In this document: positions 1 to 26,495 of the stretch, piece after piece
How positions within the stretch are numbered: position 1 is the first letter of the stretch
How the letters are laid out: the number at the start of each line of letters is the position of its first letter
IMG/VR virus record: IMGVR_UViG_3300026442_000101
Source: a virus
Taxonomy: Duplodnaviria > Caudoviricetes
Strand: one strand, 5' to 3'
Length of the DNA stretch: 64,000 nucleotides
Program-made: the position numbers and the translations under genes
Notes under the pieces: generated by a model
What the model was told of the DNA's origin: nothing
The model's database searches: none
What the model saw: only the letters and a program-made list of their open reading frames with translations

Positions 1-1082
1 TAATAGTCGAGGCTGGTCAAGTGGGACTCAACGTTCTCCACCAGTTTACCGGTACCGAGCTGGTCACCGAAGAGCACATAACCCATCCAGATCTTCCAAC
101 GCTCATCTCCCATCAACTCGTCGATATCCGTTACCTCAGGGAACAGATCGACAGTGTAGAAGAACGCACGAGCGTAGGACATCGTCAGAGGGTTGGTGCG
201 ATCTTTAGGGATCAACATCGCCATCGGAGATTTGATGGTGCTATACAGCACTTTCTGCTTGAGGGCAGACGGCCTGACATGAGACGAGGTAACGACCGTG
301 AACTTGTCAAGATCGTAACCCTGCTCCTGTACCTGCCTGATGATCTCCGCCTGAATTTTGTCAGGTTCACGAAGCTCATCAGGAACGAAGACCTTGGTGA
401 GCTGCACCTCGGTTCGAGCAAACCGGCGGAACGTTTCAGCCATTCCGTACCGACAGAACAGATAGTGAGGCAAAGTACTAACTGCCTTACCAAGCGATAA
501 TGTATCACTCTGCCCAGTTCGGTTATTAGCGCCGCCGCTATTGTGCAACCAAGACCACGCCACGTAATCCGAAACATCCTCCCCATTGACTCGGATCGTG
601 TGGATGATTTGTTTGAATGTTACCGGAGCGCGGGACATCCGGATGAACACGTAATCAGGCCCAATACTCAGACCTGGATCCATCAACACTGTACCAATCC
701 CGAACTGCTTACCTGCGATCATCGTCAGGGAACCCCGACGGGCATAAGGCAGGAAGAAGTACCGTGGGATGAGCTTGGTCTCATCACACAGGAATTGGTA
801 TTTGACCAGGTACACGTCGGTCGTGGCCAGATCGATAGACGGCTGACCACGATCCGAACGGGACATCGAGGATGCCATTACAGCGATCGCTTCTTGCGGA
901 CTACAGATTTCCGAATGCGAGAACGAGAAGTTATCCGGGAATCCCGGCTCCGCGCACGCAATGTACTGATCGATTTCCTCCTTAGCTCTCCGGAGGTCCT
1001 TGAATGCCAGACCGTCCAGGATATCCTGGTTGAAGACTGGCATGTCCTCCTGGCACTCATCGAACAATTGATAGTCAGGCAT
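1..1082 (-). CDS. Non-virion RNA polymerase beta-subunit part (phiKZ gp123-like), runs off the left edge
   Basis: Not in the ORF track because it has no stop in the window. Translated by hand from ATG at 1082 (MPDYQLFDECQEDMPVFNQDILDGLAF...TTDVYLVKYQF...FFLPY...LPHYLFCRYG...), open for 360 codons. Sequence style and position next to the capsid/DnaB block match gp123. Confidence 0.75.
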   Translation of the reverse strand, partial: MPDYQLFDECQEDMPVFNQDILDGLAFKDLRRAKEEIDQYIACAEPGFPDNFSFSHSEICSPQEAIAVMASSMSRSDRGQPSIDLATTDVYLVKYQFLCDETKLIPRYFFLPYARRGSLTMIAGKQFGIGTVLMDPGLSIGPDYVFIRMSRAPVTFKQIIHTIRVNGEDVSDYVAWSWLHNSGGANNRTGQSDTLSLGKAVSTLPHYLFCRYGMAETFRRFARTEVQLTKVFVPDELREPDKIQAEIIRQVQEQGYDLDKFTVVTSSHVRPSALKQKVLYSTIKSPMAMLIPKDRTNPLTMSYARAFFYTVDLFPEVTDIDELMGDERWKIWMGYVLFGDQLGTGKLVENVESHLTSLDY

Positions 1083-1101
1083 CCCCTACACCTATATCTG
1101 T

Positions 1102-2196
1102 CTAAGCTGGCTTTAGTTTTAGCAACGTCGTAGCGAAAGCGAAGATCGACGAAACGATACCCGTCGTCAGCTTTATCCAATCGCCGAAGTTGCGAGTACT
1201 CTCCTTTACATCTTCTTCGTTTGCGCGATAGCGCTGCCGCTCTTCCCTTTCACGACTTTGTTGTTGCTCGTACTGCATTTTCTCACGCCAATTCTCATGC
1301 TCCCAATCGGCGCGCTCTTTGGTACGTTCATAAGCTTTGCTGGTGAGTTCTTCTTTACGCATTTCTGCCTGACTAACCCCAGCTCTTGCCTGCTCGATTG
1401 TCTCAAACAAACAATACTTCTTATCTGCCTCTTCGAAGGACAGATGCTCATGTTCGATCGAATGACCAAATCCACCCATGTTCTTAACGACGGCTGTCCG
1501 CCTTCGTGTGACATGGATCCCGTCTAACATGTCCGGATCACGTTCGATAGGAATGTGATAAACCTCACTACCCACCATCATGAACCGATCGTGCCTGTTG
1601 CGCAGCTGCCCGTTGTCGATTGCGCGAATGGACATAACGAAAGTCTCATTCCCCAACGCTGGCAACTCTTGCGCCAAGCTAGCCTTTGCACGGCTGTTCT
1701 TACTAAATGGATGTTCCGCGAATTTCTGCTGCTCCCCAGCAAAGCAGATCGTCACATCCAGATCCTCAACATAAACAGAACCACCAGCTGCCAGAATATC
1801 CGACATATGGAATTCCATCTGCAACGTCAGGGAATAGACCAGACCTTGGAAAGGACTGGAATCTTTCGCCCGATAGAATGCGTTGATGATCGCTTGCGTT
1901 GTCTCGTCCGGAACCGTGTGTCGATCCTGAAGGTCGATGTAGGTAGCCATGAAGGCTTCCTCAGTCATCCTCCAGACGATGAACACATCCACGTACTCGA
2001 GCCTGCGATTCTTCAGATCCGGCTTCAGGATGGAGTTAACGCCAAGCCTAGACTTGATGCGAACTTCGCGAGACGTATTGTTCACCCAGCGGTACGTAAC
2101 CTCTGAATGTTCAAGACCTGCCTCGACTCCTTCCTGGTGAGTACAGCGAACTTGGTAGTTCCTAAACACTGGTGTTCGAAGACCACCACTATTCAT
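1102..2196 (-). CDS. Conserved phiKZ-like hypothetical protein (gp122 position), coiled-coil C-terminus
   Basis: 364-aa ORF between the capsid gene and nvRNAP beta; E/R/Q-rich helical tail; an alternative start at 1950 has an RBS. Confidence 0.6.
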   Translation of the reverse strand: MNSGGLRTPVFRNYQVRCTHQEGVEAGLEHSEVTYRWVNNTSREVRIKSRLGVNSILKPDLKNRRLEYVDVFIVWRMTEEAFMATYIDLQDRHTVPDETTQAIINAFYRAKDSSPFQGLVYSLTLQMEFHMSDILAAGGSVYVEDLDVTICFAGEQQKFAEHPFSKNSRAKASLAQELPALGNETFVMSIRAIDNGQLRNRHDRFMMVGSEVYHIPIERDPDMLDGIHVTRRRTAVVKNMGGFGHSIEHEHLSFEEADKKYCLFETIEQARAGVSQAEMRKEELTSKAYERTKERADWEHENWREKMQYEQQQSREREERQRYRANEEDVKESTRNFGDWIKLTTGIVSSIFAFATTLLKLKPA

Positions 2197-2265
2197 AACG
2201 ATAAATCCCCTGAGTTAAAAATTACAACGCTCCATTCTTGCTTTACCCTGCCTCATCATCTTGAT

Positions 2266-2277
2266 AATGTATCACTG
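2266..2277 (-). promoter_or_regulatory. Recurrent phage promoter-like motif CAGTGATACATT
   Basis: Copy of a motif found upstream of several minus-strand operons, often just after a terminator. Confidence 0.6.
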
Positions 2278-2311
2278 TAATCGCTTTATCCATAAAACAG
2301 CATAATGCAGC

Positions 2312-2343
2312 ATAAAGAGCGGTGGTTTCCCACCGCTCTTTAT
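2312..2343 (-). terminator. Hairpin terminator after the major capsid gene (14-bp stem, GAAA loop, TTTATG tail)
   Basis: ATAAAGAGCGGTGG-GAAA-CCACCGCTCTTTAT. Confidence 0.8.
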
Positions 2344-2365
2344 TAAACGCCTATGCCCTTACGGG

Positions 2366-4618
2366 TTAAGGAGTTACGGTGCCGCCGCCGGAGTCGTCGC
2401 CGCCACCGGTCCCACCAGTACCACCGGTACCGCCAGTGCCTGCGTCGGTGCCACCGTCGCCAGCTTCAGCTTCGGTGAGTTTGACACGAAAAGGCAGGGT
2501 CTGCTCCAGGAGCTCAGCAACGCCTTCCACGTTCACCTTGACGATGATCGGGCAGAAGTTGTAGTGCTGGAAGCGCGGCTGCACTACAGCCTCGTTCACT
2601 GGACGGCCATCACGGGTAACCGAGATGGTGGAGACCAGGGTCGGAGTCAGCAGCATTGCGCCGGAGCTCAGAGCGTCGATGCCTTCGCCATCGCGAACGA
2701 TGACCATGTACATGACGTCGCGCAGACGGGCGTCCACGTCCGATTCCAGCTGGTACTTCAGACCAGCACCCAGGGTGCGGCTGTCGCCCGAGATGGTCAT
2801 GAAGCGCTCGATCTGCTTCGAGGTCACCAGACCGAAGCGGAACGGTTGAGCAACTTCACCGCCGTCCATGTAGCGGCAGGCGTTCTCGTAGTTGGTCTTC
2901 TGCAGGATGTCGAAGGCCACCGAACGCAGGGTGTTGACCAGGACCGCAACGCCGTTCTCGACGTTGGCGACGGTTTCCTGCGACTGGGCAGTTTCCATCA
3001 GGTCGACGGTCAGTTCCTGAACGTACGGGTTGACGAGGTAACGGCCGATACCTTCGATAGGCAGGGCGTTGATCTCGAAGTCGCCAGCGGTCATCTCGCC
3101 GCGCAGGCCACCGGTCAGACGCATCAGACGCTCGTGGTAACCGATCAGGGTACCCACAGCTTCGTTGTTGATGTAGCTGGAGACCGCGAAGGTCAGCCAG
3201 TCCATCACGGTCTGGTCACGGTTTTCGCTCAGTGGGTACGGAACGAAGAACGGCGAACGCTGACGGGTCAGCAGACGCTCGGTCACGTTACGGACGTTGA
3301 GCATCAGGCCCAGGTGACGGTGGTTGGTGTTGGTCAGACGAGCGTCCGGCCACCAGCCGACTACCTTCAGTTGTGCCAGGCCATCAACGATGGTCTTGCC
3401 GACGCCGGTGCCCAGCGGGATGCGCTCGCCAGCTTCGTTCTCGATGTACATCACTTCCATGGAAGTGGTGGACACGTCGATGGTGCCGCGCTCAACATCG
3501 CTGTTGCCGTTCAGACGGGTCTTCAGACGGACGCTGTAGCCACCATCTTTGATGGTGGTGAACACCGCACCAGTCAGAGCTTCGCCCTTGTAGTTGGTGG
3601 TGTTCTTGTCGATCTTCAGGGTGGTCAGAACGAAGTTCAGCGACAGTTGACGGCCGCCTTGTTCTGGCAGCTTCACGAAGCGGCTGAATGGCAGACCCTT
3701 GGTGTCGAACACGATGGTGTCGGCGCCCAGGCCCAGGTACACGTCGGCAACGCCGATGTTACGGTCCAGTGCTTCGGTGTAGTCGGCTTGACCAACGCGG
3801 CTGATCGAGTCGGACTGACCCAGGCCGAAGATGTTGACGGTCTTGTTGACCAGCAGAGCCGAGGTCTTGACGGTACGACGACCGGAGATGTAGTCGAACG
3901 GCTCGACAACGGATTCGGCGACGAAGTTGTCTTTCGACACGTCGGCGTAGCCCGGGATCAGCTGGGTGCTGTTGTCGTGCAGTACGGTGTAGTCGATCGC
4001 CGAGTCCATGACGCGGCGCAGGCCGAAGTCGGATTCGGAACCATCCAGCTCGTGGCGCAGGGTGTTCTGCACGTAGAGGTTCGGGATGGTGATGTCGATA
4101 CCGCCTTGCTCAGGAGTCAGTGGAACGGTGCGGTACACCATTTCCATGGCCGGGCCCTGGCGCGCGATCTTGTAGTTCAGACCGATGGAGATCGGCAGGT
4201 GATCGATCAGCGACTGGTTGTCGAAGGATTCCTTCGAGTATTCGCTGTCGAATTCCATGCCGTCGGCGTGAGCGTAACGCACACCAGCGCCCAGCTGCTT
4301 GCTTTCGGTCGAGATCTGCAGGTTCAGCAGGTCGGAAGGACGCTGGGCGAACGAGGCGATGAACGAGGCTGCTGCCATACCGGCCGGGTTCTTGTAACCG
4401 GCTTCGGTGTTGCCTGGCTCGAGGACGCTTTTCAGGTTCTCGGCAACGCTCGACAGATCGACGCGGCTTTCGAAGGAACCTTCTTGCAGCCACTTGATGG
4501 CGTCAGCGCTCTCGGTGGAATAACCACCGGAGTGAATGTTTTCCTGGATCTGGGTAGCCAGCACGCCAGAGCCGGCGCCGAAGTTGCCGCCGGGCTTGTT
4601 GAGTTTGATGACACTCAT
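2366..4618 (-). CDS. Major capsid protein (phiKZ gp120-like)
   Basis: 750 aa with very strong codon bias; propeptide with S-x-E protease sites (YSTES, GSFES, YSKESFDNQ); adjacent to DnaB as in phiKZ; Gly/Thr-rich C-terminal tail. Confidence 0.9.
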   Translation of the reverse strand: MSVIKLNKPGGNFGAGSGVLATQIQENIHSGGYSTESADAIKWLQEGSFESRVDLSSVAENLKSVLEPGNTEAGYKNPAGMAAASFIASFAQRPSDLLNLQISTESKQLGAGVRYAHADGMEFDSEYSKESFDNQSLIDHLPISIGLNYKIARQGPAMEMVYRTVPLTPEQGGIDITIPNLYVQNTLRHELDGSESDFGLRRVMDSAIDYTVLHDNSTQLIPGYADVSKDNFVAESVVEPFDYISGRRTVKTSALLVNKTVNIFGLGQSDSISRVGQADYTEALDRNIGVADVYLGLGADTIVFDTKGLPFSRFVKLPEQGGRQLSLNFVLTTLKIDKNTTNYKGEALTGAVFTTIKDGGYSVRLKTRLNGNSDVERGTIDVSTTSMEVMYIENEAGERIPLGTGVGKTIVDGLAQLKVVGWWPDARLTNTNHRHLGLMLNVRNVTERLLTRQRSPFFVPYPLSENRDQTVMDWLTFAVSSYINNEAVGTLIGYHERLMRLTGGLRGEMTAGDFEINALPIEGIGRYLVNPYVQELTVDLMETAQSQETVANVENGVAVLVNTLRSVAFDILQKTNYENACRYMDGGEVAQPFRFGLVTSKQIERFMTISGDSRTLGAGLKYQLESDVDARLRDVMYMVIVRDGEGIDALSSGAMLLTPTLVSTISVTRDGRPVNEAVVQPRFQHYNFCPIIVKVNVEGVAELLEQTLPFRVKLTEAEAGDGGTDAGTGGTGGTGGTGGGDDSGGGTVTP

Positions 4619-4812
4619 CGTGATACTCCAAATAGCTATTTGGTATAATTGAGAGATCGAAGCTTCGTTTTCGGGACTGACGCCTGTCTCCTAGTAGTCG
4701 ACTACCAAAAGCAATCCCTCGTCCTGCTGGCGTATTCTTGAATTCTGTCGATCGCCATACGGCGTAATCTACATATCACCGTGATAACACACGGATTTTC
4801 CATAACATGTAT

Positions 4813-5361
4813 TTACGGTTTGGCGCTGTCGTTCTCGAGCTCTTTACTGGTGGTCATCACCTGGCTCTTGCTAGCCCCGGAGTTTTTATTTACCGAGGAT
4901 AGGAATTTATTGAACGACTTCGACGCGTAAGCCACTTCACGACCGCGATAGGTTGCCATCGCAGTGAGCAGCTCACGAATGAGATCTTTCTTGTCCGAGC
5001 CATCCTTTTCAATGAGCAGGATGCCATCATAACTATCTGGAACGATCACAAAGTGACCGAGCTCGAACTGCGGTACGGTAGCATCCTTCTGGTCGGAGCC
5101 GTAGAGCGCAAACACTGCATCGTCGGCGCTGAACTGGCCGACCTTGTCCGCTGCTGGGAATACGAAATCATCGATACCCAGAGCTTTGAAGCGAGAACGC
5201 AGCAGATGGTTGGCGACATAGTAGAGTCCGATGTCATGCGGCGATACTATGCTCTCGAAATCTTTTACGTTAGTCCCGTAATGTTCGATAGAGCCGCTCA
5301 GCCATTTTGGAATGAACCGAAGCTCGATTGGTTTGTTCATCACACACCCATTAACTTTCAA
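4813..5361 (-). CDS. Hypothetical protein (phiKZ gp119 position)
   Basis: 182-aa ORF between DnaB and the capsid gene. Confidence 0.6.
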   Translation of the reverse strand: MKVNGCVMNKPIELRFIPKWLSGSIEHYGTNVKDFESIVSPHDIGLYYVANHLLRSRFKALGIDDFVFPAADKVGQFSADDAVFALYGSDQKDATVPQFELGHFVIVPDSYDGILLIEKDGSDKKDLIRELLTAMATYRGREVAYASKSFNKFLSSVNKNSGASKSQVMTTSKELENDSAKP

Positions 5362-5379
5362 TGCCTGCGGTGAGGCGGT

Positions 5380-6921
5380 ATGGAAATCAAGCTACTGTTA
5401 GCCAAGGCCATCAGCGCCATCTATTACGCAAGTCACTCCGGAGGTCAAGATCCGGAAGCTACCTCGAACCTGATCGAACGCACTCTGGAACACCTAAGCC
5501 TTCCAGACGATCCGCTGAACTCGAACCGCGAGCACTCAGCGCTGATGCGTACACGCCAGATCTTGGTCTGGATGAAAGGTAAAGGTATCGACCACGCCTA
5601 CGATCAAAACGACCTCATGGCGAGGCTTTGTGCGTCCTGTGGGGACAATGATCGTCTATATGATCTCTTCTGCAAGAGTATCCTGGTAGTTGACGATCCG
5701 GATGCGGCAAAAGACAAGTACGATTCGATCGCACATGAACTGTACGATTTCATTGCAGTAGAAGACTTCGTCAAGCTGGCCAGGGCTGCATCCCACAAGA
5801 TCGCATTCAACCGCGACAAGATCACTGACGTAGCTCGTTTCCGCGACGAGCTGGTGCTCAAGTTGCAGGACCTGCCGCTGGCCGGTAAACGTCGCGCTGC
5901 ATCCGCTGGTCGCTGCATTGACATTGGTGATATCGAAAGCTTGACCCAAGTCTACCAGCTCGCTCAAAGCGCGATCGATCCAGATGCCATCCTCAAGCTG
6001 CCGTTCAAAGCAGCTAACCGCATGACGGGTGAGCAGGACGGCGTGCGTCGTGGTGAATGGGGTAACGTGTCGGCTCTGTCGGGTATGAACAAGTCAGGTA
6101 CACTGCTTGATGAGTTCATCTCGTTCTGTATCTTCAACACACCGAAGCTGATTGACGAAACCAAGAAGCCTTGCCATGTGTTGGCGATTCTGGAAGACAA
6201 GCCCGAACTCGTACTCCAGAAGCTCTACGTTCTGCTCATGCAGCACGAAACAGGTCTGCCTGTGATCATCCGAGGGGTAGACCCGAAAGAGATCGCACAG
6301 TACGTCATGGAGCGTCTGCAGCGCAATGGCTGGCATGTCAAGATCTTTGACTATACAGAAGGCGCTGAGGTAGACGACTGTATCGAAGACCTGCGTCAGC
6401 TGCAACGTGATGGCTACGAGATCTTCACATTCGGTTGCGACTACCCGAACCTGTTCGATAAGAGCAGCATCGTGGTGCAGGTAGCCGGTGAAGAGATCCA
6501 GCTCTGCCACCGTAAGCTGCGTAAGTTCACTGCGCCGAACAACATCTACGGTTACGCAGTGCACCAGTTGTCCACGCAAGCTAAGGAGATGTCCCGTCAG
6601 TATCCTGAAGACTACATCAAGAAGCTGCCTGGTAAGGGTTACTACGAAGGCTGTAAGAAGCTCGACACTGAGTTCGACTTCGAGCGGTTTGTAGCCAAGA
6701 CCATGCATGGTGGTCAAGCGTGGCAAGAAGTGCAGTGGGGCAAGCACCGTAAGATCGGTACGACTCCTGAGCAGGATAAGTACTACGCACTGAAGTTCCT
6801 CCCGTATCCAATGATGGGCTTCAAGTACGACTTCGATCTCGAAGAAGATCTGTCCTTCCGTAAAGTCGGCGGGCGTCTTGCAGCAGGAGCTGCCGGTCAC
6901 GAGTGGACCGATTTCGACTGA
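5380..6921 (+). CDS. DnaB-like replicative helicase (phiKZ gp118-like)
   Basis: 513 aa; Walker A-like ALSGMNKS, DYPNL Walker B region, VHQLS motif; synteny with the capsid gene. Confidence 0.85.
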   Translation: MEIKLLLAKAISAIYYASHSGGQDPEATSNLIERTLEHLSLPDDPLNSNREHSALMRTRQILVWMKGKGIDHAYDQNDLMARLCASCGDNDRLYDLFCKSILVVDDPDAAKDKYDSIAHELYDFIAVEDFVKLARAASHKIAFNRDKITDVARFRDELVLKLQDLPLAGKRRAASAGRCIDIGDIESLTQVYQLAQSAIDPDAILKLPFKAANRMTGEQDGVRRGEWGNVSALSGMNKSGTLLDEFISFCIFNTPKLIDETKKPCHVLAILEDKPELVLQKLYVLLMQHETGLPVIIRGVDPKEIAQYVMERLQRNGWHVKIFDYTEGAEVDDCIEDLRQLQRDGYEIFTFGCDYPNLFDKSSIVVQVAGEEIQLCHRKLRKFTAPNNIYGYAVHQLSTQAKEMSRQYPEDYIKKLPGKGYYEGCKKLDTEFDFERFVAKTMHGGQAWQEVQWGKHRKIGTTPEQDKYYALKFLPYPMMGFKYDFDLEEDLSFRKVGGRLAAGAAGHEWTDFD

Positions 6922-15986: not shown

Positions 15987-16030
15987 CATCCAGCGGGTCC
16001 CTTCGGGGACCCTTCGCTAAGGAGCGAGTT

Positions 16031-17056
16031 ATGTTACGAGCTATGCTCGGCTTCGACCACTGTCCCCGGAACGTGGCCAACAGCTGGATTGCCAACTCCG
16101 GCTATTCGATCGAACGCTATTACCTGGACACTGGTGTCGGTCGTGACATCATCGTCGATAACAATGCCAAGTTGTCCATCTCTGCCGGCAACACTGCTGG
16201 CCGTACCTTGCACGTCCTGAACCTCAGTCAGTTCCTGGTCCCGAACGCAGCCAACAGCTTTGTATTCGGCTATCGGGCGAAGATGGAGACGGCCGGCGGT
16301 GCGGTTGGTGACTGGGCGCTATGGGTGGATTACCAGCGTGGTAACACTGGCGCAACCATCCTCAACCTCGGCCATATTTTCGGCACTGTTACGGCCGGTG
16401 TCGAGGCGTACATCGAGATCGTCATCCTGACGTCCGGCGCTGTAGAGTTCTGGAAGGACGGTGTGCTGGTCAGTTACAACGCTACTCTTTTGAGCGGCAT
16501 GATTGCTCAACTGAAAGCTGGTAACTTCTCCCTCGTCTTGCTGGCAGCTACCGCCAACACCCCTGCCGTGATTTCGTATCGCGACTTCTACTTGCTCGAT
16601 GACGTGCCTGGCGATGGTTTCACTTCCCGTCTTGGTTCCCGCGTCGTACGACCGGTCACTATTGACGCTGTTCCGGTGTCTACCGGCTGGAGCGCAACGA
16701 ACTCGCAGACTCCGCTGGAGATCCTCAGTGCACCGATCGATACCGCGAGTCCAGGTCTTCTGACCTCGTCCGTGGGCGCTCAGGCGCTTGAGGTGAGTTT
16801 GAAGTCGACCATCCCGGCCAACACCAAGGTGGAAGCGATTCAGCTCATGGCGGGCGCACTAGGCAGCACTGCGGCTTCTCGCCTAGGTTTCTCTCTGAAG
16901 GATGCTAACGGGGTTACTTCTCGTCGAGTAGTCACGCCAAGCACCACCCTCAAGTACGGTTTGCCGACCGGCTGCTGGACTCGTAGCCCGAGTGGACAAG
17001 AGTGGACCAACGCCACCATCGATAGCACGTCGCTGGTGATCACCCCTGATCTGTGA
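16031..17056 (+). CDS. Putative lectin-like (ConA/LamG-like beta-sandwich) tail protein
   Basis: Beta-rich; YIEI...G.VEFWKDG, YRDFY...RLG and WTxxxI motifs shared with 18959 and 20087. Confidence 0.55.
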   Translation: MLRAMLGFDHCPRNVANSWIANSGYSIERYYLDTGVGRDIIVDNNAKLSISAGNTAGRTLHVLNLSQFLVPNAANSFVFGYRAKMETAGGAVGDWALWVDYQRGNTGATILNLGHIFGTVTAGVEAYIEIVILTSGAVEFWKDGVLVSYNATLLSGMIAQLKAGNFSLVLLAATANTPAVISYRDFYLLDDVPGDGFTSRLGSRVVRPVTIDAVPVSTGWSATNSQTPLEILSAPIDTASPGLLTSSVGAQALEVSLKSTIPANTKVEAIQLMAGALGSTAASRLGFSLKDANGVTSRRVVTPSTTLKYGLPTGCWTRSPSGQEWTNATIDSTSLVITPDL

Positions 17057-17066
17057 GTAATCGGCT

Positions 17067-18095
17067 ATGACGATTTCCGTTCGTAACGCGCTGGGTTATG
17101 CATTAACCCGGCCAGCCGGGACCAACACTCTGCGTAACGTCATTGGTTACGCGCTGACGTTACCGGCAGCTGATGCAGTCGTGAAAGGCGGCGACGTAAA
17201 TCTGCTGGCTTCTCGCGAGCAGATGTTGTACCAGCTCGTTGTCAAGAGCAACCCCAAGATGGCCAGCTACGCCGCTACCGACATTGCCTTCAGTAGCGTC
17301 ACTGCCATGAACGCCACTATAGCTCCAAGCGGCGGCTCGTCGCTGATGCCGGATACTTCGGCGATCGTGAAGGCAGCAGGCTCCGGTAGTATGATCGGAC
17401 AGCAGACCGTCTATTACCGCCGCATCGACATCAGCAAACTGTTCAAGGGCAGGACGCTGACGTTGAAGGTGCCCTACGCCATGGGCACGACTGCGATTAC
17501 GAGGGCTCAGGCTCTAGACTTCGCTGCTCAGCAGTTTGGCATCAGGATCCCTACCGATGACGTTAACTTCACGTCTTGGTCGTTCCCTGCAAACAATAGC
17601 CTCAGTATAGTCGGAACGAGTCCTTGTTTCAAAGGGACGCTGATCATCAGGGTTGAGCGCGATAAACAGCTCCTGAGTTCGGTGGTTGGGGATCGAACCT
17701 TTGCCGGCCGGTCTTGGCCAGATGCGATGATCGACGTGGGCGATGGAACCAAGCCGCAAGGCGAACTGCTGTTGTACGACATCGATTACAGTTCCCAGAA
17801 ATCGGTATTGAACAACCTATCTTCTGGCACAGTTCCTGACGTCAACACCACCGGGAGTCTTGCTGCTGCGATGAACGCAGTACCTAACAACTCAGGGTAC
17901 GCGTTTGGTAATCAGCGGTGCGATACCCCGCCTGGGATCTTACTGGCGCGAGCGACACGGTATACGCTGCCTAACGCAGCAATTCCCGAGGCCAACTCGG
18001 CGCAATACAATCGCTGTGTTGTTATCGAAAACGTCGATTACCCGCAGTATCCGTCGTGGTGGGCGGGGAAGATCATCCTTCATTACAATGTCTAA
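17067..18095 (+). CDS. Virion structural paralog with 2 N-terminal RNxxxYAL repeats
   Basis: VRNALGYALT / LRNVIGYALT; YRRIDI; ends GKIILHYNV. Confidence 0.7.
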   Translation: MTISVRNALGYALTRPAGTNTLRNVIGYALTLPAADAVVKGGDVNLLASREQMLYQLVVKSNPKMASYAATDIAFSSVTAMNATIAPSGGSSLMPDTSAIVKAAGSGSMIGQQTVYYRRIDISKLFKGRTLTLKVPYAMGTTAITRAQALDFAAQQFGIRIPTDDVNFTSWSFPANNSLSIVGTSPCFKGTLIIRVERDKQLLSSVVGDRTFAGRSWPDAMIDVGDGTKPQGELLLYDIDYSSQKSVLNNLSSGTVPDVNTTGSLAAAMNAVPNNSGYAFGNQRCDTPPGILLARATRYTLPNAAIPEANSAQYNRCVVIENVDYPQYPSWWAGKIILHYNV

Positions 18096-18106
18096 CGGGG
18101 CAACCT

Positions 18107-18601
18107 ATGTCAGTTTATACGGAATCCAGGGCTGATGTGATCGACCTGTTCCTGAAAAAGACTGGCTTGTCGATCCCGACGGCTGACCTCATCGTCAGCC
18201 GTCCGAAGGTGAACGATGATCCAGCTCGCCCTACAACCAACACCCAGGTCAAGTTTACGGTGGCGGATACCAACGCCAGCTACAGTGGTAGCGAGGTATT
18301 CCACTACAATCGGCTAGACTTGGCCAGGTTGGCAAACTACCCAGCGCCGGACTACCCGCCGATTACTAACGTCGGGGTGTCGGTATACGCGCTGCTAACG
18401 CAAATCAAAAACGCCATGGGGTTATCCTTCACCCCTGACGATTTGGTGGAGACGTTCGTGACCGGTACCGAAGGTAACACGTCCATCCTCCTCAAAGCCA
18501 AGACCACTTCGCTGGGATGGATCGGTGAGTTCAACCTACCGCTCGGTGTTCCGCCGCTGCTGAGCAGCATCTTCGTCAAAGACTTCGTTCTCTGGAGCTA
18601 G
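18107..18601 (+). CDS. Virion structural paralog, N-domain only
   Basis: MSVYTESRADVIDLF...TNTQV...YNRLDL. Confidence 0.7.
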   Translation: MSVYTESRADVIDLFLKKTGLSIPTADLIVSRPKVNDDPARPTTNTQVKFTVADTNASYSGSEVFHYNRLDLARLANYPAPDYPPITNVGVSVYALLTQIKNAMGLSFTPDDLVETFVTGTEGNTSILLKAKTTSLGWIGEFNLPLGVPPLLSSIFVKDFVLWS

Positions 18602-18603
18602 TA

Positions 18604-18948
18604 ATGGCTAACGATATCAATTGGGTCCGTTACGGATTCCACATCAACGACCCGGCCGTCAAGCCTGTCGCTGAGCAGTTCGAGACCGGTGAAATCGTCG
18701 ATATCGAGAAAGGTCAGTTGCTCGCTGATCTGATGAACGAGATCGATAAGAAGGAAGGTAAGGGTCAGTGGGTCAGTAATGACGAACTGCCCGGCAACTT
18801 CAACTTCAACGGCTGTTACGTCGACCACCGCGGGCCGAACAGCTTCAACTATCCGACCAAGGGTACCATGCAGAACGTGTTGATTCTGTCGTTCCCCTCC
18901 TCGGCTGTACAGCCGGTTGGTCGCATCTACATTCCCTACAACGACTAG
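18604..18948 (+). CDS. Virion structural paralog, C-domain only
   Basis: Ends GRIYIPYND, like the C-domains of the two-domain paralogs. Confidence 0.6.
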   Translation: MANDINWVRYGFHINDPAVKPVAEQFETGEIVDIEKGQLLADLMNEIDKKEGKGQWVSNDELPGNFNFNGCYVDHRGPNSFNYPTKGTMQNVLILSFPSSAVQPVGRIYIPYND

Positions 18949-18958
18949 GAGTTGAGTC

Positions 18959-20044
18959 ATGCCTATTCTTTCTGTTGAAGGGATGTTGGATGCCCTCCCC
19001 GGCGCCGGTCACAACAGTGCGAGCGTCGGTACGGCATTGCTTGGCAGTCCATACCTGATCTTCGCAAACTCTGCCGCCACCTTCAGTGAGGTGACCATCT
19101 CCAAGGATGTGAACGGTTGGCTGAACACCCGCACAGGCCCAGCCACCGGCACCACGACGCAGACCACCAAGTACTGCGGCATCAGCCGACTCCTTTCTGA
19201 CTACACGACGATTGCGGCGAGCACGTACCTTTACGGCGGGGTGCGTCTGAAGGTATTCGTCAACGCCACCCAGCTTCCAATCGTAACGCTCCATGACCGG
19301 AAGAGTCTTCCGAATACCCCCTCGAACCAGGTGGTCATCTTCAACTATCAGGATATCCCGGGCGGTGTGGTGGCTGGTCAAGAGTACTACTTCGAATGGG
19401 CCATCGATATGGCTGCCGGTAAGGTGTATCGTCGCCTTGATGGCAATCGTATTGCCGACGTTACCCTATCGGCCGCTAACATCACTGCGCTACTAGCGCA
19501 GGGGTTTGGTATCTGCTACGGCTTTGCGGCTGGTTACTCCGTGGCGATGTCCACTGTGGTCGGATACAGCATCAAAGACATCTATGTCGGCGAGAAAGTG
19601 GCTGGCGAGACTGTCGACTGGCTGGGGCCTCGCTCTGTGGTGCCTGTCGACTTCAACGCGTTGGATTCGCAGTGGCTTGCCAGTGCCGGCACACCGCTCA
19701 GCGCACTGCAGACCCCGATCAACGATAGCGCTTCGCTAAACGCGCCGTCGGTCACTTCCGATGTGGCGGGTACCCCTGGTACGTTCACCATGAACACCCC
19801 AGCGGTTACCGGCATTATCAATGCCGTAACGCTCACAGGCCTGGCCAAGCGGCAAGCAGGTTCGTTGGGCGGTCTGAAGGGCGCTATTAAGTCTGGCAAC
19901 AACCAGATCGATGGTCAGCCCAAGAACCTGGATCTTACCTACACCTACGTCACCCTCGGTCTGTATCCTAAGGCCCCAGGTAACGTGTCGTGGACTAAGG
20001 AACTACTGGGTTCGCTCAGCACCATCGTCACGCCGAGTAACTAA
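18959..20044 (+). CDS. Putative lectin-like tail protein
   Basis: Paralog of 16031 and 20087 (EYYFEW...G.VYRRLDG, IKDIY...WLGP, SWT). Confidence 0.55.
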   Translation: MPILSVEGMLDALPGAGHNSASVGTALLGSPYLIFANSAATFSEVTISKDVNGWLNTRTGPATGTTTQTTKYCGISRLLSDYTTIAASTYLYGGVRLKVFVNATQLPIVTLHDRKSLPNTPSNQVVIFNYQDIPGGVVAGQEYYFEWAIDMAAGKVYRRLDGNRIADVTLSAANITALLAQGFGICYGFAAGYSVAMSTVVGYSIKDIYVGEKVAGETVDWLGPRSVVPVDFNALDSQWLASAGTPLSALQTPINDSASLNAPSVTSDVAGTPGTFTMNTPAVTGIINAVTLTGLAKRQAGSLGGLKGAIKSGNNQIDGQPKNLDLTYTYVTLGLYPKAPGNVSWTKELLGSLSTIVTPSN

Positions 20045-20086
20045 ACATCGCACGGGGAGTGGCGACACTCCCTACGAGGATTTCCC

Positions 20087-21223
20087 ATGCGCGGATTCAA
20101 CATCATCGGTCTCAATCACCTCCAGAAAGGCAAGCTCGGTGACATGAACGCTTGCTACGGATTTGGTTCCAGTCAATGGGAGCCGGTCGCCATTCGCAAC
20201 GCGACGAGCCAGGGTCAAGTTGGGTTGTACGTCAATACTGCCAACAAGCTGGTGTTTGCAGTAAACGACACGGTCGGAACAACCAAGGCCGGCTGCACTC
20301 AAATCAAGCTGTCTAAATTGATCGATAACGCAGCCGACGTCGCTGAGCTTACCATCGGTATGCGTCTTGATGCTGCGCCGTATACGCCGTCCATCACCAG
20401 CGCTTATCCACTGGTCTGCCTTTATGCGATACAGCCCGCTGTCGGCGCTACCAACGGACCACAATCCACTCTCGTGATACAGCCTTCTGCTAACGTCGCT
20501 GCAGCGTCTGGTTACTACGAGTTCGTATTCACCCTAACCGCCGTAGGTGCCGGCGGTGGTAGGATCGACATCTATCTGGATAAAGTCTTCCAGGGCTACA
20601 CCACGTTGGCATCCACGATCGGTCGAACCAACATTGGTAACTACTACCTCAGCTTCGGTCGTATGGCTATGGTTTGCTATAACAGCACGACTCCTGGGCT
20701 CGGTGGTGCGGATACGGTGCTCTTCACCATGGAGGACATTTACTGCGTGTACGACACCGTCGTTCAAGATGGTAGTACCCGTAAAGGTCCGATGAAGATC
20801 CGCCCTCTGGACGTCGATACCAACAACGATGTCGCGTGGCAGACTTCGGACGGCAGTGCTCGTGCAGCGTGCTTGAACCTCGCCGATCACCACGGCACTA
20901 TCTTGACGCCGTATGTCCTGTCCCCACTCGACATGACGGCCATCAAACTCAGACGCGTCACTACGCCGATCAGCGACAGCGACAAGATCCTCTGCATTGC
21001 TGGAGCGACTAGCGCTTCTCGTGACGTAGGGCAGTCAGCGAACATCTCGGCTAAGTGGAAGTTCAACTCTTCGGAATCGGCAGCTACCAGCTATCTGCCC
21101 ACTTCCGGAGACTACACCACGCAGAAGGACTTCCCGCTAGTCACTCTCCAGGCCATGCCGGACGGCTCACCCTTCACCAAGGCCAAGTTGGCTGACCTCG
21201 AGATGGTCCTGACTCCGGTATAA
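20087..21223 (+). CDS. Putative lectin-like tail protein
   Basis: Paralog of 16031 and 18959 (YYEFVF...IDIYLD, MEDIY...RKGP). Confidence 0.55.
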   Translation: MRGFNIIGLNHLQKGKLGDMNACYGFGSSQWEPVAIRNATSQGQVGLYVNTANKLVFAVNDTVGTTKAGCTQIKLSKLIDNAADVAELTIGMRLDAAPYTPSITSAYPLVCLYAIQPAVGATNGPQSTLVIQPSANVAAASGYYEFVFTLTAVGAGGGRIDIYLDKVFQGYTTLASTIGRTNIGNYYLSFGRMAMVCYNSTTPGLGGADTVLFTMEDIYCVYDTVVQDGSTRKGPMKIRPLDVDTNNDVAWQTSDGSARAACLNLADHHGTILTPYVLSPLDMTAIKLRRVTTPISDSDKILCIAGATSASRDVGQSANISAKWKFNSSESAATSYLPTSGDYTTQKDFPLVTLQAMPDGSPFTKAKLADLEMVLTPV

Positions 21224-21233
21224 CGAGGTCGTC

Positions 21234-21944
21234 ATGCCGCAAATCAAACTTAGGAACGCCCCACTCTACGTGGGTATGGTGGGCGATGCGCGAGTTAAGT
21301 TGCGTAACGCCCCGATGTATGTGGCGGTTCAGAGCCCACCTGTGGTAGAGTTCCGTAGCGTCAGGGCCTACGCTTTGACTCAACCAGCGAACACCACGCA
21401 GTTACGTAATGTTCGGATGTACGCGCTGGTGCAGATGGCGCCGCTTACCTATCTTGCCAAGGCAGGCGCGGTAGCTCTCCTCGAGGCTATCAACAAGGAA
21501 CATTCCAAAACCCTGACTGCGGAGCAGGTGTATTTCGAGAATCCCCAACCTCTGGCTGGTGATGATCACTTCAACTCGCAGATCACCATGAAGCCACATG
21601 CGGTGTTCCCGTATTCTGGACAAATGGTGTTCCGGTATAACCGATTCGTCATCGCTGACTTCTTCGCAGGTAAGGATACCAGTACCCTGCCAGCAGGTAG
21701 TCAGACCACCATCCACGGACGACTGGCGGCTATCAATAGTACGTTTGGGTGCTCGTTATCGACGACTGATGTCGTGAACGCTCCAGTGGCAGCTAATACC
21801 ACAGGCCTCACGCTCACCATCGCTACCACGAGTATTCTATTCGTACCAGGTAGTAAGATGTTCATCGGACAGTCGTTACCAGCCGACGATCTCTCGGTCA
21901 AGGCTCCGGTAACCGATCTCGGTGGTTTTGATGCAGAAGGCTAA
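21234..21944 (+). CDS. Virion structural paralog with 4 N-terminal R(N/S)xxxY repeats
   Basis: LRNAPLYV, LRNAPMYV, FRSVRAYAL, LRNVRMYAL; YNRF; ends VTDLGGFDAEG. Confidence 0.7.
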   Translation: MPQIKLRNAPLYVGMVGDARVKLRNAPMYVAVQSPPVVEFRSVRAYALTQPANTTQLRNVRMYALVQMAPLTYLAKAGAVALLEAINKEHSKTLTAEQVYFENPQPLAGDDHFNSQITMKPHAVFPYSGQMVFRYNRFVIADFFAGKDTSTLPAGSQTTIHGRLAAINSTFGCSLSTTDVVNAPVAANTTGLTLTIATTSILFVPGSKMFIGQSLPADDLSVKAPVTDLGGFDAEG

Positions 21945-21952
21945 GTAGACAG

Positions 21953-21984
21953 CATACAGCCCCGGCGCGAGCCGGGGCTGTATG
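21953..21984. terminator. Bidirectional hairpin between convergent structural genes
   Basis: CATACAGCCCCGGC-GCGA-GCCGGGGCTGTATG. Confidence 0.8.
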
Positions 21985-21994
21985 TCGCTTGGGA

Positions 21995-22519
21995 TTAACC
22001 CTCGGCGTCGAAGCCGTCCAGGTCAGTCACGGAAGCTGCTTCGTTCAGAGGAACGTCAGCGTCCGGTACGGACAGAACAGCAGCGAAGGTGCCGGTGTAC
22101 AGCAGGCTGCCAGCGTCGGCAACAACATCGGCCGAACCGTTGGTGTCTTCGTCAACCGGGCGAACGATGTTCGACAGGCTGATTTCCGATTCGATCAGAC
22201 CCAGCGCGGTAGCGACCTTGGTCAGGACCTGTGCGTCGGTATCGCCTTCAGCGATGACCACAGGGATGGCCTTGGCAGTAGCGATACCTTCGCCAGCAGT
22301 CAGCGCCCGACGGGTGTAGCTGAAGGTCTGGGTGCCGCTGAAGCCTTGGTTGTCGACAGCGGTGTAGGTGATGCTGGTGTTGCGACCACCAGTGCCAGCT
22401 TCGCTGACAACCGAGCCAGGAGTGATCTGGGCGGCGGTAGCGTTCAGGCTGGGGTTAGCAGCGTTGATCAGTGCCAGGACGTTAGCCGCGGCAGTGATGG
22501 CGATATTGACTTTAGCCAT
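21995..22519 (-). CDS. Virion structural paralog (YxRR domain), probably abundant
   Basis: GRNTSI...FSYTRRAL; ends VTDLDGFDAEG; codon bias like the capsid gene. Confidence 0.7.
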   Translation of the reverse strand: MAKVNIAITAAANVLALINAANPSLNATAAQITPGSVVSEAGTGGRNTSITYTAVDNQGFSGTQTFSYTRRALTAGEGIATAKAIPVVIAEGDTDAQVLTKVATALGLIESEISLSNIVRPVDEDTNGSADVVADAGSLLYTGTFAAVLSVPDADVPLNEAASVTDLDGFDAEG

Positions 22520-22571
22520 GATGTTGAACCCTTCATGTTTGCGGTTAGGGACAGTCCTAACATAGCATCAG

Positions 22572-22615
22572 CGGCATAAGCCCCTACACCAGAGCCGTGA
22601 AGCCTGGTGTAGGGG
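22572..22615 (-). terminator. Hairpin plus TATGCCG ending the 620-nt non-coding unit
   Basis: CCCCTACACCAG...CTGGTGTAGGGG, then CTTATGCCG. Confidence 0.7.
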
Positions 22616-22619
22616 AATG

Positions 22620-23240
22620 CTCAAGGATCAGAAAGGCAACTACCCGACAATGGATACCTGGGGAGGAGATGCGCGGCTGCTACGCGCTCCATCGTCGTTA
22701 GGTCGACCAAGACTTTTGTCGCCCTTATCTCCGTTTCAGTGAGGTCAATACCCACCCATCAGATCGCCTATAATAGACGTGCACATCCATTACAAGCATC
22801 TGAAGGCTGCGTACTACGAGCCGCGTTGGTCGGCAGTCCATTTCCGTCTTTTACGATCATCGCTTCAGCCCACTGGACTGCGGGTCGAACCCGGAGCAGC
22901 GGTCCACTAGACCGACGGAGCGTGACGGCGTACCACGATTAACTGCCAAGCGCGAACATCGTGCAACAACTTGAGTACTCCTTGAAGCGTTGGCGTGCTT
23001 AACGAGTCCCCCGTACCCTTCGAAACTCTAATCACCGGCCAGGGGTCAGAGAGTCTCTCATATACTCCAATAGTCCAGGGTGAGGTTATTGGAGATGCCC
23101 TAAGGCATATCAAACACAAGAGTGTTTCACGCCATGTTTAACGTCTTGCGATCATCAGTGATAAGACGATCAGAGGACCAGCTGCCTTAGACAGTCAGGC
23201 GGCCAGCGAGGGAGTCCGGGATGCGCGGCTGGTCCTCTGA
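22620..23240 (-). ncRNA. Putative ~620-nt structured non-coding RNA
   Basis: No credible ORF; many hairpins; 13-bp 5' stem; 12-nt terminal direct repeat; upstream GTATTATAT element; downstream terminator. Confidence 0.6.
23108..23163 (-). ncRNA. Putative type I hammerhead ribozyme
   Basis: UAUCA-CUGAUGA-(23-nt stem/loop II)-GAAA-CAC-UCUU-GUG-UU^UGAUA; all invariant core nucleotides are present, and stems I and III are Watson-Crick. Confidence 0.65.
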
Positions 23241-23263
23241 TATAATACTTTCATGTTTCGTAA

Positions 23264-23971
23264 TTATTCACGGATAGTTCGCACCATGTACTCGTTGGTC
23301 ATCTTGATGACGTTACCTAACTTAGTAGCCGCGTTGATGCGCTGGCAGAACTCTTTGAGGATCGGTCCACCGGACTGGGATTTACAGTTGAAGGTCAGTT
23401 GGATCATGCCGGCGAAGATACGGACTTCGATAAGCGGCACCGGCAGCAGGGTGGCTTGGATCACCTTGCCGTCGATATCGGTACGATATAGCACGTAATG
23501 GTAATCGAGATCACGAGTGCTATCAAGTACGACTTGGTTGATGCCGTAGAGGGCTTGCCGTATCGCATCACGATCGGCAGTGTCGGTGTCGTTAAACACT
23601 ACGCTGATACTTCCGCCAGTATCCTCACCACCAACCGAGACTACCTGCATACGCAGCAGGGCGTTAATGACATCACGATTGGCTTTGAGGTGATCCATGC
23701 TCGAGTCGAACTGTAACGCAGTGATCGCTAAGCTCGTGTCCACGCGGCGTGGTACGTTCTGTTCCTTGATGACGATCTCGACTTTACTGCCATCAAGGCT
23801 AGTCCAGTTACGGATATCCTCGCCAACGAGGTTGCGCTCTGCACGCAGATCCTCGCTGGTGATCTTAACCTCGTGACCGTACTCCTGCATCAGAGCACGC
23901 TCGATGATTGCCATGACGTGACTTTTACCGACGCCGGTCGAACCTTTAACGATGACTTCGAGCTTTTCCAT
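23264..23971 (-). CDS. Hypothetical protein with N-terminal P-loop-like motif
   Basis: VIVKGSTGVGKS at the N-terminus; no clear Walker B. Confidence 0.55.
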   Translation of the reverse strand: MEKLEVIVKGSTGVGKSHVMAIIERALMQEYGHEVKITSEDLRAERNLVGEDIRNWTSLDGSKVEIVIKEQNVPRRVDTSLAITALQFDSSMDHLKANRDVINALLRMQVVSVGGEDTGGSISVVFNDTDTADRDAIRQALYGINQVVLDSTRDLDYHYVLYRTDIDGKVIQATLLPVPLIEVRIFAGMIQLTFNCKSQSGGPILKEFCQRINAATKLGNVIKMTNEYMVRTIRE

Positions 23972-24341
23972 TGGCTGCGATCTCTCTTTTGATGTATGAC
24001 CATTTGTTCATGATGCCCGCCGCAGCGCCGAGCGCTACGTCATGACAATCATTGTATTCAAACGCTACCTCCCTGAGACCAGGTCGTAGGGCTCCGACCT
24101 GCTTGTCGTCACGCTTAGCTTCGAGGACGACACAGTAGACCTCGTGTTTGACGAGGTGCGCCACGTACCGGGCAGCGTCACGCCACAGCTTGTTAGGGAC
24201 ATCATGGCAGGTCATCTTACGGACCTCATTGAGATAACCCTCAACCTTTAAGATGAGGACGTATTCGTCGCCAAGGAGTCGAAGTAAGTCTCGAGGTATT
24301 TGATGCCGCACACAGTCCAGCAGAAATGCTTCCAGTTCCAT
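23946..24341 (-). CDS. Hypothetical protein
   Basis: 131 aa with GGAGG RBS. Confidence 0.6.
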   Translation of the reverse strand: MELEAFLLDCVRHQIPRDLLRLLGDEYVLILKVEGYLNEVRKMTCHDVPNKLWRDAARYVAHLVKHEVYCVVLEAKRDDKQVGALRPGLREVAFEYNDCHDVALGAAAGIMNKWSYIKREIAANGKARSHR

Positions 24342-24419
24342 GACGACCTCCGTTTATTCATTACATAGCCGTCATTGTTAAATGTATACGAACGGCATAA
24401 AGACCCGGCCGAAGCCGGG

Positions 24420-24665
24420 CATCTTGATCTTCATGTTGCCCGTCGTTGTACATGCGCATCCGGCTAGAGGCAGCGAACCGCCCGATAGGTTTCAGCTACA
24501 AGCATTGATAGGCGCGTTCAGCCTCAGGAAGAACGCTAAGGGGTGGCGTTGCCGCCATTGGGGTTCCATTCCTCAGGGAGCTGGACGAAACGGACGTCCT
24601 TACTGTGAGTTCAAGATCTAAATTGTGAAAGAGCTCAGAGAACAACTTGTGAGGGCATTCTCTAC
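24420..24665 (-). ncRNA. Putative ~245-nt structured RNA
   Basis: Closing stem ATCTTGA/TCAAGAT; GGCG-GCAA-CGCC and GGCGG-TTCG-CTGCC tetraloop hairpins; TATG at the 5' end; hairpin+TTTATGCCG at the 3' end. Confidence 0.45.
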
Positions 24666-24748
24666 ATAGTATATTGACATCATCCGTAAGTATTCACGCA
24701 AAAAAAAAAGAAAGTAGCACAGCCCGGCTTTCGCCGGGCTGTATGCTG

Positions 24749-25072
24749 TCAGTCTTTGCGACGTCTGAAGGATGTGATTGCTTTCTTGATGTAGGAGAGG
24801 TTCTTGATCTCGGAATACGGGACCGAGTTCTGCCGACAGAAATCTCTGTAGGCGATCAACTCCTCCATCTTCGAAAGCTGCACGTAGTGACTGATCTCAC
24901 CATCGGGTAGATAGTGGCGGATATAGATCATGTCGTCCTTGTGCTTACTTGGGTCAGCAGCTTCCCAGATGAGTCGCTCCTTACCGTGGATCGTATCTAC
25001 GAAGAGGTGGACGACAGTGCCGTCCTCATCCCCGTAGTGATCCTGACTGTGCTTGATGTACGGCTGTGTCAC
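24749..25072 (-). CDS. Hypothetical protein
   Basis: 107-aa ORF (GTG start) overlapping its neighbour by 4 nt. Confidence 0.55.
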   Translation of the reverse strand: MTQPYIKHSQDHYGDEDGTVVHLFVDTIHGKERLIWEAADPSKHKDDMIYIRHYLPDGEISHYVQLSKMEELIAYRDFCRQNSVPYSEIKNLSYIKKAITSFRRRKD

Positions 25073-25761: not shown

Positions 25762-25773
25762 AATGTGTGACTG
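25762..25773 (-). promoter_or_regulatory. Promoter-like motif CAGTCACACATT
   Basis: Motif copy between a terminator and the ATG at 25722. Confidence 0.6.
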
Positions 25774-25834
25774 AAAAATAGTTAAATGCGGCATATACCC
25801 CACCACCGGCGGAGCGACCGGTGGTGGGGATCTA

Positions 25835-26061
25835 TGTTGGTTCACACTTGGGGCTGAGTGGTCACCCCACAGAGTTCGGCTTGTCCTCACGACGCTGAAC
25901 TCTGCAGGCTGTGCACTCTAGGCACTAGCTAGACTCCGACGGACCCGCGACCGTCGTAGCCTAAGGTCGGAGAGGACTCCCGACCACGGTGATCCAACGA
26001 TGGGAGTGTGCACACCGTTGGATTAAACTGAATCCATTCGCCCGAAATAATTCAGTCTAAC
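25835..26061 (-). ncRNA. Putative ~230-nt highly structured RNA
   Basis: Six consecutive hairpins whose G-U pairs work only on the minus strand; GTATTATATG directly 5'; hairpin+TATATGCCG 3' (25789-25829). Confidence 0.65.
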
Positions 26062-26078
26062 ATATAATACATCACATG

Positions 26079-26495
26079 TCACCAGTTGAACATCTTACTC
26101 CTCTCCGATGCATTAGCCTCGACAGTGTATTCGTCGAAAGGCTTGGCATTTGCGTATGCACGTTTAGCTGTAGGGAGGAACCCTGCGGCTTTGTATGCGC
26201 GGATGCTTGAAGCATTCTTCGGTTCGATCCAGGCTCTCATGCGCTTACCTTGACGAAATGCGCGAATGAAGTCTGCTGCCACACCTTTACCCCGATATTC
26301 GGGGAGGATGTAAATAGAGCCTGTCCGCCAGTAGCCGTCCGGCTCTTGGAATGGTACAGAGAATCCCACGACCTTCCCCTCGAAGTACAAGGGTTCGATA
26401 TTTTCCATGTGGTTCTTAAGTGCGGCAGGGCCTAAGAATGGATCCTTCAAGGCTTTGTCCACGAGCGCTTTAAGCTCAGGTGTTATAGTCGCCAT
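26079..26495 (-). CDS. GNAT-family acetyltransferase
   Basis: IYILPEYRGKGVA (motif A) and N..SIRAYKAAGF (motif B). Confidence 0.85.
   Translation of the reverse strand: MATITPELKALVDKALKDPFLGPAALKNHMENIEPLYFEGKVVGFSVPFQEPDGYWRTGSIYILPEYRGKGVAADFIRAFRQGKRMRAWIEPKNASSIRAYKAAGFLPTAKRAYANAKPFDEYTVEANASERSKMFNW

Follow-up and report, generated by a model that had tools for sequence, protein, structure and literature searches.

The closest described relatives of the RNA element reported here are the pseudoknot hammerhead ribozymes of Perreault et al. 2011 (PMC3088659), and the ribozyme class itself is already known in phages. A helix I/II pseudoknot, on which fast cleavage critically depends, is present in about 40% of natural hammerheads, across all three types, and intergenic hammerheads occur in phages, the halovirus HHphage example lying at a mapped transcript 5′ end (PMC3088659). 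Perreault et al. also list hammerhead-like RNAs that are inactive in vitro as well as slow phage variants (PMC3088659). In canonical hammerheads helix II is closed by a highly conserved G10.1-C11.1 pair (PMC4209133, PMC2837043). The structure of a pseudoknot hammerhead has been solved by crystallography (PMC11300833). In that form (Weinberg et al. 2015; Zhan et al. 2024) helix II has shrunk to the G10.1-C11.1 pair, and its function passes to a pseudoknot formed with the loop of an additional hairpin, helix IV (PMC11300833). The hammerheads of Penelope-like elements, which are eukaryotic retroelements, keep G10.1-C11.1 and are mostly dimers (PMC4209133).

The element that we describe shares with the Perreault hammerheads the core, the three helices with an open helix I (type I), a 5-6 bp pseudoknot between the helix I side and loop II, and the phage intergenic setting (PMC3088659). 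A transcript-processing role, as in those phage hammerheads, is predicted here. It differs from them in having a U.U where they have G10.1-C11.1 and a pseudoknot formed with the single-stranded 5′ flank of helix I, and it falls below reporting level with every Rfam model. As in the Weinberg/Zhan form, loop II pairs with an element 5′ of helix I (PMC11300833), but here helix II persists as a covarying stem of 3-4 bp and loop II pairs with the linker between a leader hairpin, P1, and helix I; the single-pair helix II and the helix IV partner of that form are absent, and one lineage (L012) has no upstream hairpin. The U.U could also be read, as in the Penelope-like-element hammerheads, as one extra base on each side (a U after A9), although the retroelement context is unrelated to the present one (PMC4209133). 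The transcript that the present element is predicted to process is a large structured ncRNA of a jumbo phage and not, as with the Perreault hammerheads, an mRNA or repeat transcript. The ncRNA is, like GOLLD, ROOL and similar Rfam RNAs, several hundred nt long, densely structured, phage-borne and abundant, whereas its body matches no Rfam family, either at gathering threshold or at E ≤ 10. We know of no report that GOLLD/ROOL-type families are matured by a 5′ hammerhead, and a full-text search returned no papers linking hammerheads to jumbo phages.

The window, by which we mean the whole 64,000-nt stretch of DNA analysed, derives from a phiKZ-like jumbo phage of soil that has not been cultured. 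The major head protein, a match to phrog_3231, is only 39% identical to that of the closest cultured relative; a candidate chimallin protein gave no Pfam match. The ncRNA lies in a gene-free stretch of 744 nt (22520-23263) between two minus-strand genes (Table 1), and ARAGORN found no tRNA or tmRNA. The flanking 235-aa protein combines an N-terminal P-loop domain of ~75 aa (GxTGVGKS), which is widely conserved (51 representatives at E ≤ 0.001), with a clade-specific C-terminus, and its gene adjoins the ncRNA in every lineage, on either the upstream or the downstream side.

Table 1. Coordinates of the hammerhead, the ncRNA and the flanking genes. Positions refer to the window unless a locus is named; stem sequences are given in the order window, L009, L012.
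Feature	Position	Strand	Remarks
P-loop protein gene, 235 aa	23264-23971	minus	flanks the ncRNA
DUF7941 virion protein gene, 174 aa	21995-22519	minus	other flank of the ncRNA
AT-rich motif GUAUUAUAU	23240-23248	minus	just upstream of P1; candidate promoter/start region
P1, leader 5′ hairpin	23169-23241	minus	13-16 bp stem with structured interior; RNAalifold pairs columns 10-82
Pseudoknot 5′ strand, CGUCU(U)	23168-23163	minus	directly 5′ of helix I; pairs with loop II AGACG; CGUCU/AGACG, CGCCC/GGGCG, AUGUCG/CGACAU
Helix I 5′ strand, AUCA (2.4-2.1)	23162-23159	minus	pairs with UGAU 23112-23109; AUCA/UGAU, UUCA/UGAA, GGUUA/UAACC
Core C3-A9, CUGAUGA	23158-23152	minus	unchanged in window, L002, L003, L009, L012, L105, L106
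Helix II, CGC/GCG	23150-23148/23132-23130 (span 23151-23129)	minus	two of three pairs covary; after U.U: CGC/GCG, CGCC/GGCG, UGUC/GACA
U10.1 and U11.1	23151 and 23129	minus	U.U in all lineages
Loop II, 15 nt	23147-23133	minus	first six bases, AAGACG 23147-23142, form the pseudoknot 3′ strand
Core G12-A13-A14 (GAA)	23128-23126	minus	unchanged in all lineages
Helix III, ACAC-UCUU-GUGU	23125-23114	minus	includes A15.1 (23125) and U16.1 (23114); two pairs covary; ACAC/GUGU, ACA..UGU with 24-nt insert, ACCU/AGGU
Residue 17, U	23113	minus	predicted cleavage 3′ of it, between 23113 and 23112
Helix I 3′ strand, UGAU	23112-23109	minus	covaries with 23162-23159; predicted start of 5′-OH product
First body hairpin, AUGCC-UUAG-GGCAU	23095-23108	minus	A-U to C-G compensatory change in lineage C (RNAalifold columns 143/158)
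Predicted mature RNA body, ~540 nt	22575-23112	minus	ends in hairpin 22615-22581 and UAUGCCG
RNA family loci in relatives	L002:4926-5660; L003:6721-7448; L009:5278-5967; L012:2637-2990; L013:1398-1770		
Lineage D hammerhead	L009:5362-5447		RNA at same place as in window
Lineage F hammerhead	L012:2572-2636		shorter RNA homologue, just upstream of P-loop gene

The hammerhead letters are all present on the minus strand at 23163-23108, exactly as quoted in the initial annotation, which had noted that no invariant nucleotide was missing; these nucleotides are unchanged across the diverged lineages described below. The features of the class found here are the C3-A9 core, G12-A14, an A15.1-U16.1 pair (A23125-U23114) that is kept in all lineages together with a non-G residue 17, covarying helices and a tertiary contact. 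The scissile bond, 23113/23112, is predicted from hammerhead numbering, and helix I is short, at only 4-5 bp. A descriptor as loose as the original reading (helix I of at least 5 bp, helix III of at least 4 bp, helix II free) matched only the 23163-23108 site in the window and 0.01 times per 64-kb dinucleotide-type shuffle, so the motif is not a trivial chance occurrence. When the pseudoknot was added, the expectation was 0.01 matches per window and 0.003 per L009 shuffle, with 0 matches in 300 L012 shuffles and one, AT-rich, in 1.3 Mb of unrelated real DNA. A reading of CUGAUGA as part of a kink-turn or C/D box was rejected by inspection, as the tandem G.A pairs are absent.

We located relatives through homologues of the flanking P-loop protein, of which few exist, and then through the synteny of their contigs. 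Four other uncultured phage lineages carry the same RNA beside the same genes. With the window as lineage A, these are B (L001/L002), C (L003-L007), D (L009) and F (L012; also L105 and L106), L009 and L012 being very divergent. In lineages B and C the flanking proteins are 42-45% identical to those of the window, yet the RNA is 88% identical. Among lineages A-C two runs, of 61 bases (23244-23184) and 49 bases (23169-23121), are invariant and cover the leader and the motif, and differences within the motif are confined to the helix III loop (UCUU, UUUU or UUCU). L009 and L012 keep CUGAUGA, GAA, A15.1-U16.1 and a non-G residue 17, while every helix sequence differs (Table 1).

No hammerhead was found at loci L011, L014 and L107-L109. 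Searches of 50,697 phage records with blastn and tblastn gave no relatives of the RNA or of the flanking gene, exact or gapped pattern searches of IMG/VR for further homologues returned nothing or random matches, and a single metagenome scan added only one more lineage-C copy. A pattern search of genome contigs gave 76 matches, all of which failed the descriptor. Seven cultured jumbo phages were searched in subsets, with model R2 (DT01, LucasX, RTH11, Xoo-sp14 and FLC9) and with RF00163 (Eowyn, phiKZ, DT01, LucasX and RTH11); the weak partial matches obtained were without GAAA and helix III and were rejected.

Covariation among homologues, which the initial annotation had named as a check, is found in helices I, II and III alike. 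A covariance model of the hammerhead structure built from lineages A-C alone recovered L009 at 36.9 bits (E 8e-7) and L012 at 25.7 bits (E 6e-4). In the model-based alignment 100% of cells are paired and 6 of the 11 pairs, two per helix, have changed on both sides, as against 0-2 in slid controls; these counts come from an alignment fitted to the model and from only three independent deep lineages, and the pairs are plain on inspection. Helix I pair 2.4-1.4 is A-U, U-A or G-C across lineages, and two of the three helix II pairs change from C-G to U-A in L012. The pseudoknot, of 5-6 bp, joins the 5′ flank of helix I (CGUCU, 23168-23164) to loop II (AGACG, 23146-23142); it covaries at 3 of 5 positions and follows the same spacing logic in the window, L009 and L012. 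In three deeply diverged lineages, compensatory changes have preserved the three-helix junction and the pseudoknot around an unchanged catalytic core.

Comparison among lineages also refines the drawing of the motif. The type I fold and the predicted cut after G-U-U at 23113/23112, releasing a leader from a long 5′-OH RNA, gain comparative support. Of five helix I pairs originally proposed, four (23162-23159/23112-23109) stand, and U23163-A23108 is not conserved; A23108 covaries with U23095 (A-U to C-G), which removes this fifth pair and part of a suggested conformational switch. That switch, in which UGAUAU would alternatively pair with AUAUCA at the extreme 5′ end, is not supported: its last bases lie in a covarying hairpin, L009 offers no complementary 5′ sequence, and L012 is without a 5′ hairpin domain. 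For helix II, the U.U-closed stem of 3-4 bp is borne out by its three versions (CGC/GCG, CGCC/GGCG and UGUC/GACA). The other version offered, a 7-nt insert before a 6-bp helix, was rejected, as nothing in L012 corresponds to it and its pairing is in competition with the covarying pseudoknot.

Downstream of the ribozyme, the RNA represents a new family of large structured RNAs with no Rfam match. The 681-nt RNA of the window folds far better than its shuffles (MFE z = -5.3), and the RNAalifold alignment of lineages A-C contains 28 compensatory pairs across the whole RNA. Changes in P1 from G-C to G.U, U-A to U.G and C.A to C-G fit a minus-strand RNA only. Because of the compensatory pairs and of G.U changes that work on the minus strand only, we regard it as a genuine minus-strand structured RNA. 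The family is ~390-540 nt long, varying by domain gain and loss, and its body holds the conserved blocks AAGGGUACGG, CAAGUUG, CGCAGCCUUCAG and GAUGGGUGGGUA. The body in the window is predicted to run for ~540 nt, from U23112 to the hairpin at 22615-22581, rather than for the ~490 nt first estimated.

The 5′ portion of the RNA is modular. The AT-rich motif upstream of P1 has conserved counterparts across lineages A-D (TATTATAT, TAATATAT and TATTATAA), and the P1 hairpin is kept with a different sequence in L009 and absent in L012. At a further locus, L013, the RNA body is present (nhmmer) together with the same short AAGAACGC leader as in L012, and the ~75-nt ribozyme module is missing. L009 and L012 have the equivalent of the first body hairpin after the ribozyme, and L013 has it directly after the short leader. 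Since L013 has no module and L012 has no P1, the hammerhead appears to be a detachable cassette between the transcription start and the body. The type I topology places the ribozyme on the discarded 5′ piece, which argues for a function in 5′-end maturation.

Each RNA unit, in all lineages, closes with a strong hairpin followed by (U)UAUGCYG (22572-22615 in the window, and equivalents). This is probably a terminator followed by a TATG-type promoter of the next (late, structural) gene, and not part of the RNA fold. A long-range helix UGGCGUG/UAUGCCG proposed by RNAalifold is probably spurious, since UAUGCYG follows every terminator hairpin. A second, unrelated conserved ncRNA family, with blocks UUUGGGUCUCCCUG and GCUUCCCUCGCAUAGACAAA, was found by nhmmer one or two genes upstream in the relatives (L012:2240-2530, L013:458-702, L014:1337-1563 and L009:3649-3828); by synteny it corresponds to the window unit 24395-24665, where there is no sequence match.

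The stretch is present in all 24 soil runs listed, 21 of which are RNA libraries. In RNA-library contigs from four soil runs the local k-mer depth at 22813-23050 is 16000-25000, read where the assembly had fallen apart into short contigs under the high depth, compared with 150-6700 in the long flanking contigs. This suggests a very abundant ncRNA, whose assembled k-mer depth exceeds that of the remaining phage genome by a factor of tens to about a hundred. Contigs span 23113/23112 in all four soil runs, although contigs cannot display strand, ends or cleavage, nor rule out DNA. In run X24 the stretch 22506-22614 is uncovered by contigs. Contigs from runs X16 and X4 continue from 22813 and 22952 into 255 unrelated AT-rich letters, which may be chimeric assemblies arising from the extreme depth, or something else. 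A third RNA unit, at 25773-26092 of the window, assembled as its own 320-nt contig at a depth of ~9000 in RNA run X9; Illumina adapter sequence directly follows 25802 and 26092, which indicates defined fragment ends at these positions.

Taken from the sequence comparisons, it is likely that positions 23168-23109 of the minus strand encode an active self-cleaving type I hammerhead stabilised by a pseudoknot. It would sit between the P1 leader and the body of the ~540-nt structured ncRNA and, after transcription, would cut between U23113 and U23112. This would leave the leader plus ribozyme, ~133 nt if transcription starts near 23245, with a 2′,3′-cyclic phosphate, and an RNA body that starts at U23112 with a 5′-OH. 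The purpose of the cut would be precise 5′ maturation of the ncRNA, and the 5′-OH may shield the body from 5′-end-dependent decay, which would fit its abundance.

The principal alternative is that the hammerhead-shaped junction is real and conserved but slow or inactive, serving the leader as a three-way junction with a structural or protein-binding role, or that it is a conditional, factor-dependent ribozyme. The G10.1-C11.1 closing pair of helix II is absent and its place is taken by U23151.U23129, invariantly U.U in every lineage, which might slow or abolish catalysis; the G-C pair is, however, typical of the hammerhead class rather than strictly defining. Rfam points the same way as the U.U: the ncRNA region had no match at gathering threshold and none at E ≤ 10 on 1.2 kb, and cmsearch with the hammerhead models (RF00163 and relatives), a check proposed at the outset, found nothing at E ≤ 10 on 101 bases of the window, nor in L009 or L012. 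We first took this null result as contrary evidence, and consider it outweighed because of the covariation. The 124-nt 5′ domain is invariant throughout in lineages A-C, so constraints there exceed those of catalysis, which suggests additional sequence-specific requirements; the domain has no antisense target or repeat elsewhere in the window beyond insignificant 11-12-mers. In addition, the helix I 5′ strand can pair with U7-U10.1 in every lineage (95% of cells paired). We speculate that this pairing may form a transient inactive conformer during transcription. The inactive and slow hammerhead-like RNAs of Perreault et al. offer precedents (PMC3088659).

Against a slow or inactive junction, 11 unpaired core residues are unchanged while the stems have turned over fully, which, on sequence grounds, is the classical signature expected of an active core. 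Residue 17, moreover, varies among non-G bases only, with U in lineages A-C, A in both L009 and L012, G nowhere and no compensating change. The fold includes a pseudoknot of the kind known to give fast cleavage, and the module is dispensable as a unit, as L013 demonstrates, which is more in keeping with a processing cassette than with an integral structural domain. We therefore consider a slow, inactive or conditional junction unlikely, and an active hammerhead the better account of the locus.

It is less probable still, and in our estimate very unlikely, that the functional form is a nested hairpin (CGUCUU-AUCA, loop CUGA, UGAU, bulge CGC, AAGACG, followed by AAACAC-UCUU-GUGUUU) to which the hammerhead likeness is coincidental. 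Both the MFE and the consensus fold of the window sequence adopt this form, with CUGAUGA within a local hairpin and GAAA paired, and under nested folding the enforced hammerhead costs 7-16 kcal/mol relative to the MFE. The outer helix of the hairpin covaries, and its inner helix, formed by the same helix I 5′ strand and U7-U10.1, can be drawn in all lineages. The outer helix, however, is equally the pseudoknot of the hammerhead, so its covariation cannot discriminate between the two and the nested-energy argument against the hammerhead was dropped; the fold had looked unstable because nested folding programs cannot place the conserved pseudoknot. With the duplex energy of the pseudoknot added, the hammerhead equals or surpasses the nested optimum in L009 and L012 and lies near it in the window. 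None of the inner-helix pairs has changed on both sides, one is a U.U mismatch in L009, and the A14-N17 pair of the nested form is broken in two of the three deep lineages, L009 and L012. The hairpin also leaves unexplained the covariation of the helix I strands (A-U, U-A, G-C), that of helix II (CGC/GCG to UGUC/GACA) and the fact that GAA never changes.

A functionless chance motif is effectively refuted and scarcely credible: at 0.01 per window many chance matches would arise among the some 250,000 windows scanned, but this one is found again at the corresponding place in two distant lineages whose stems differ, where at most 0.003 are expected per locus, and no part of the expressed, covarying RNA is more conserved than the one that holds it.

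With an active hammerhead as the preferred reading, what is new at this locus is first the variant itself, with its conserved U.U at 10.1/11.1 and its pseudoknot to the helix I flank. This variant escapes every Rfam model, and such ribozymes are therefore likely to be under-counted in phage genomes. New, too, is the use to which it would be put, as a putative detachable 5′-processing cassette on a large, strongly covarying and abundant ncRNA. The mature 5′ end is predicted precisely (U23112), and mutants of the core would provide a handle on the role of the ncRNA in jumbo-phage infection. More tentatively, and with some doubt on our part, the hammerhead cut may be the obligatory maturation step of a new class of hyper-abundant structured RNAs in giant, possibly nucleus-forming, phages. 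The 5′-OH body would then be resistant to decay or competent for assembly or ligation, the 124-nt leader with its 2′,3′-cyclic phosphate may be a second functional RNA in some lineages, and the U.U form may represent a missed hammerhead subtype. If this is true, ribozyme-processed ncRNAs would be a general and so far unpublished feature of jumbo phages.
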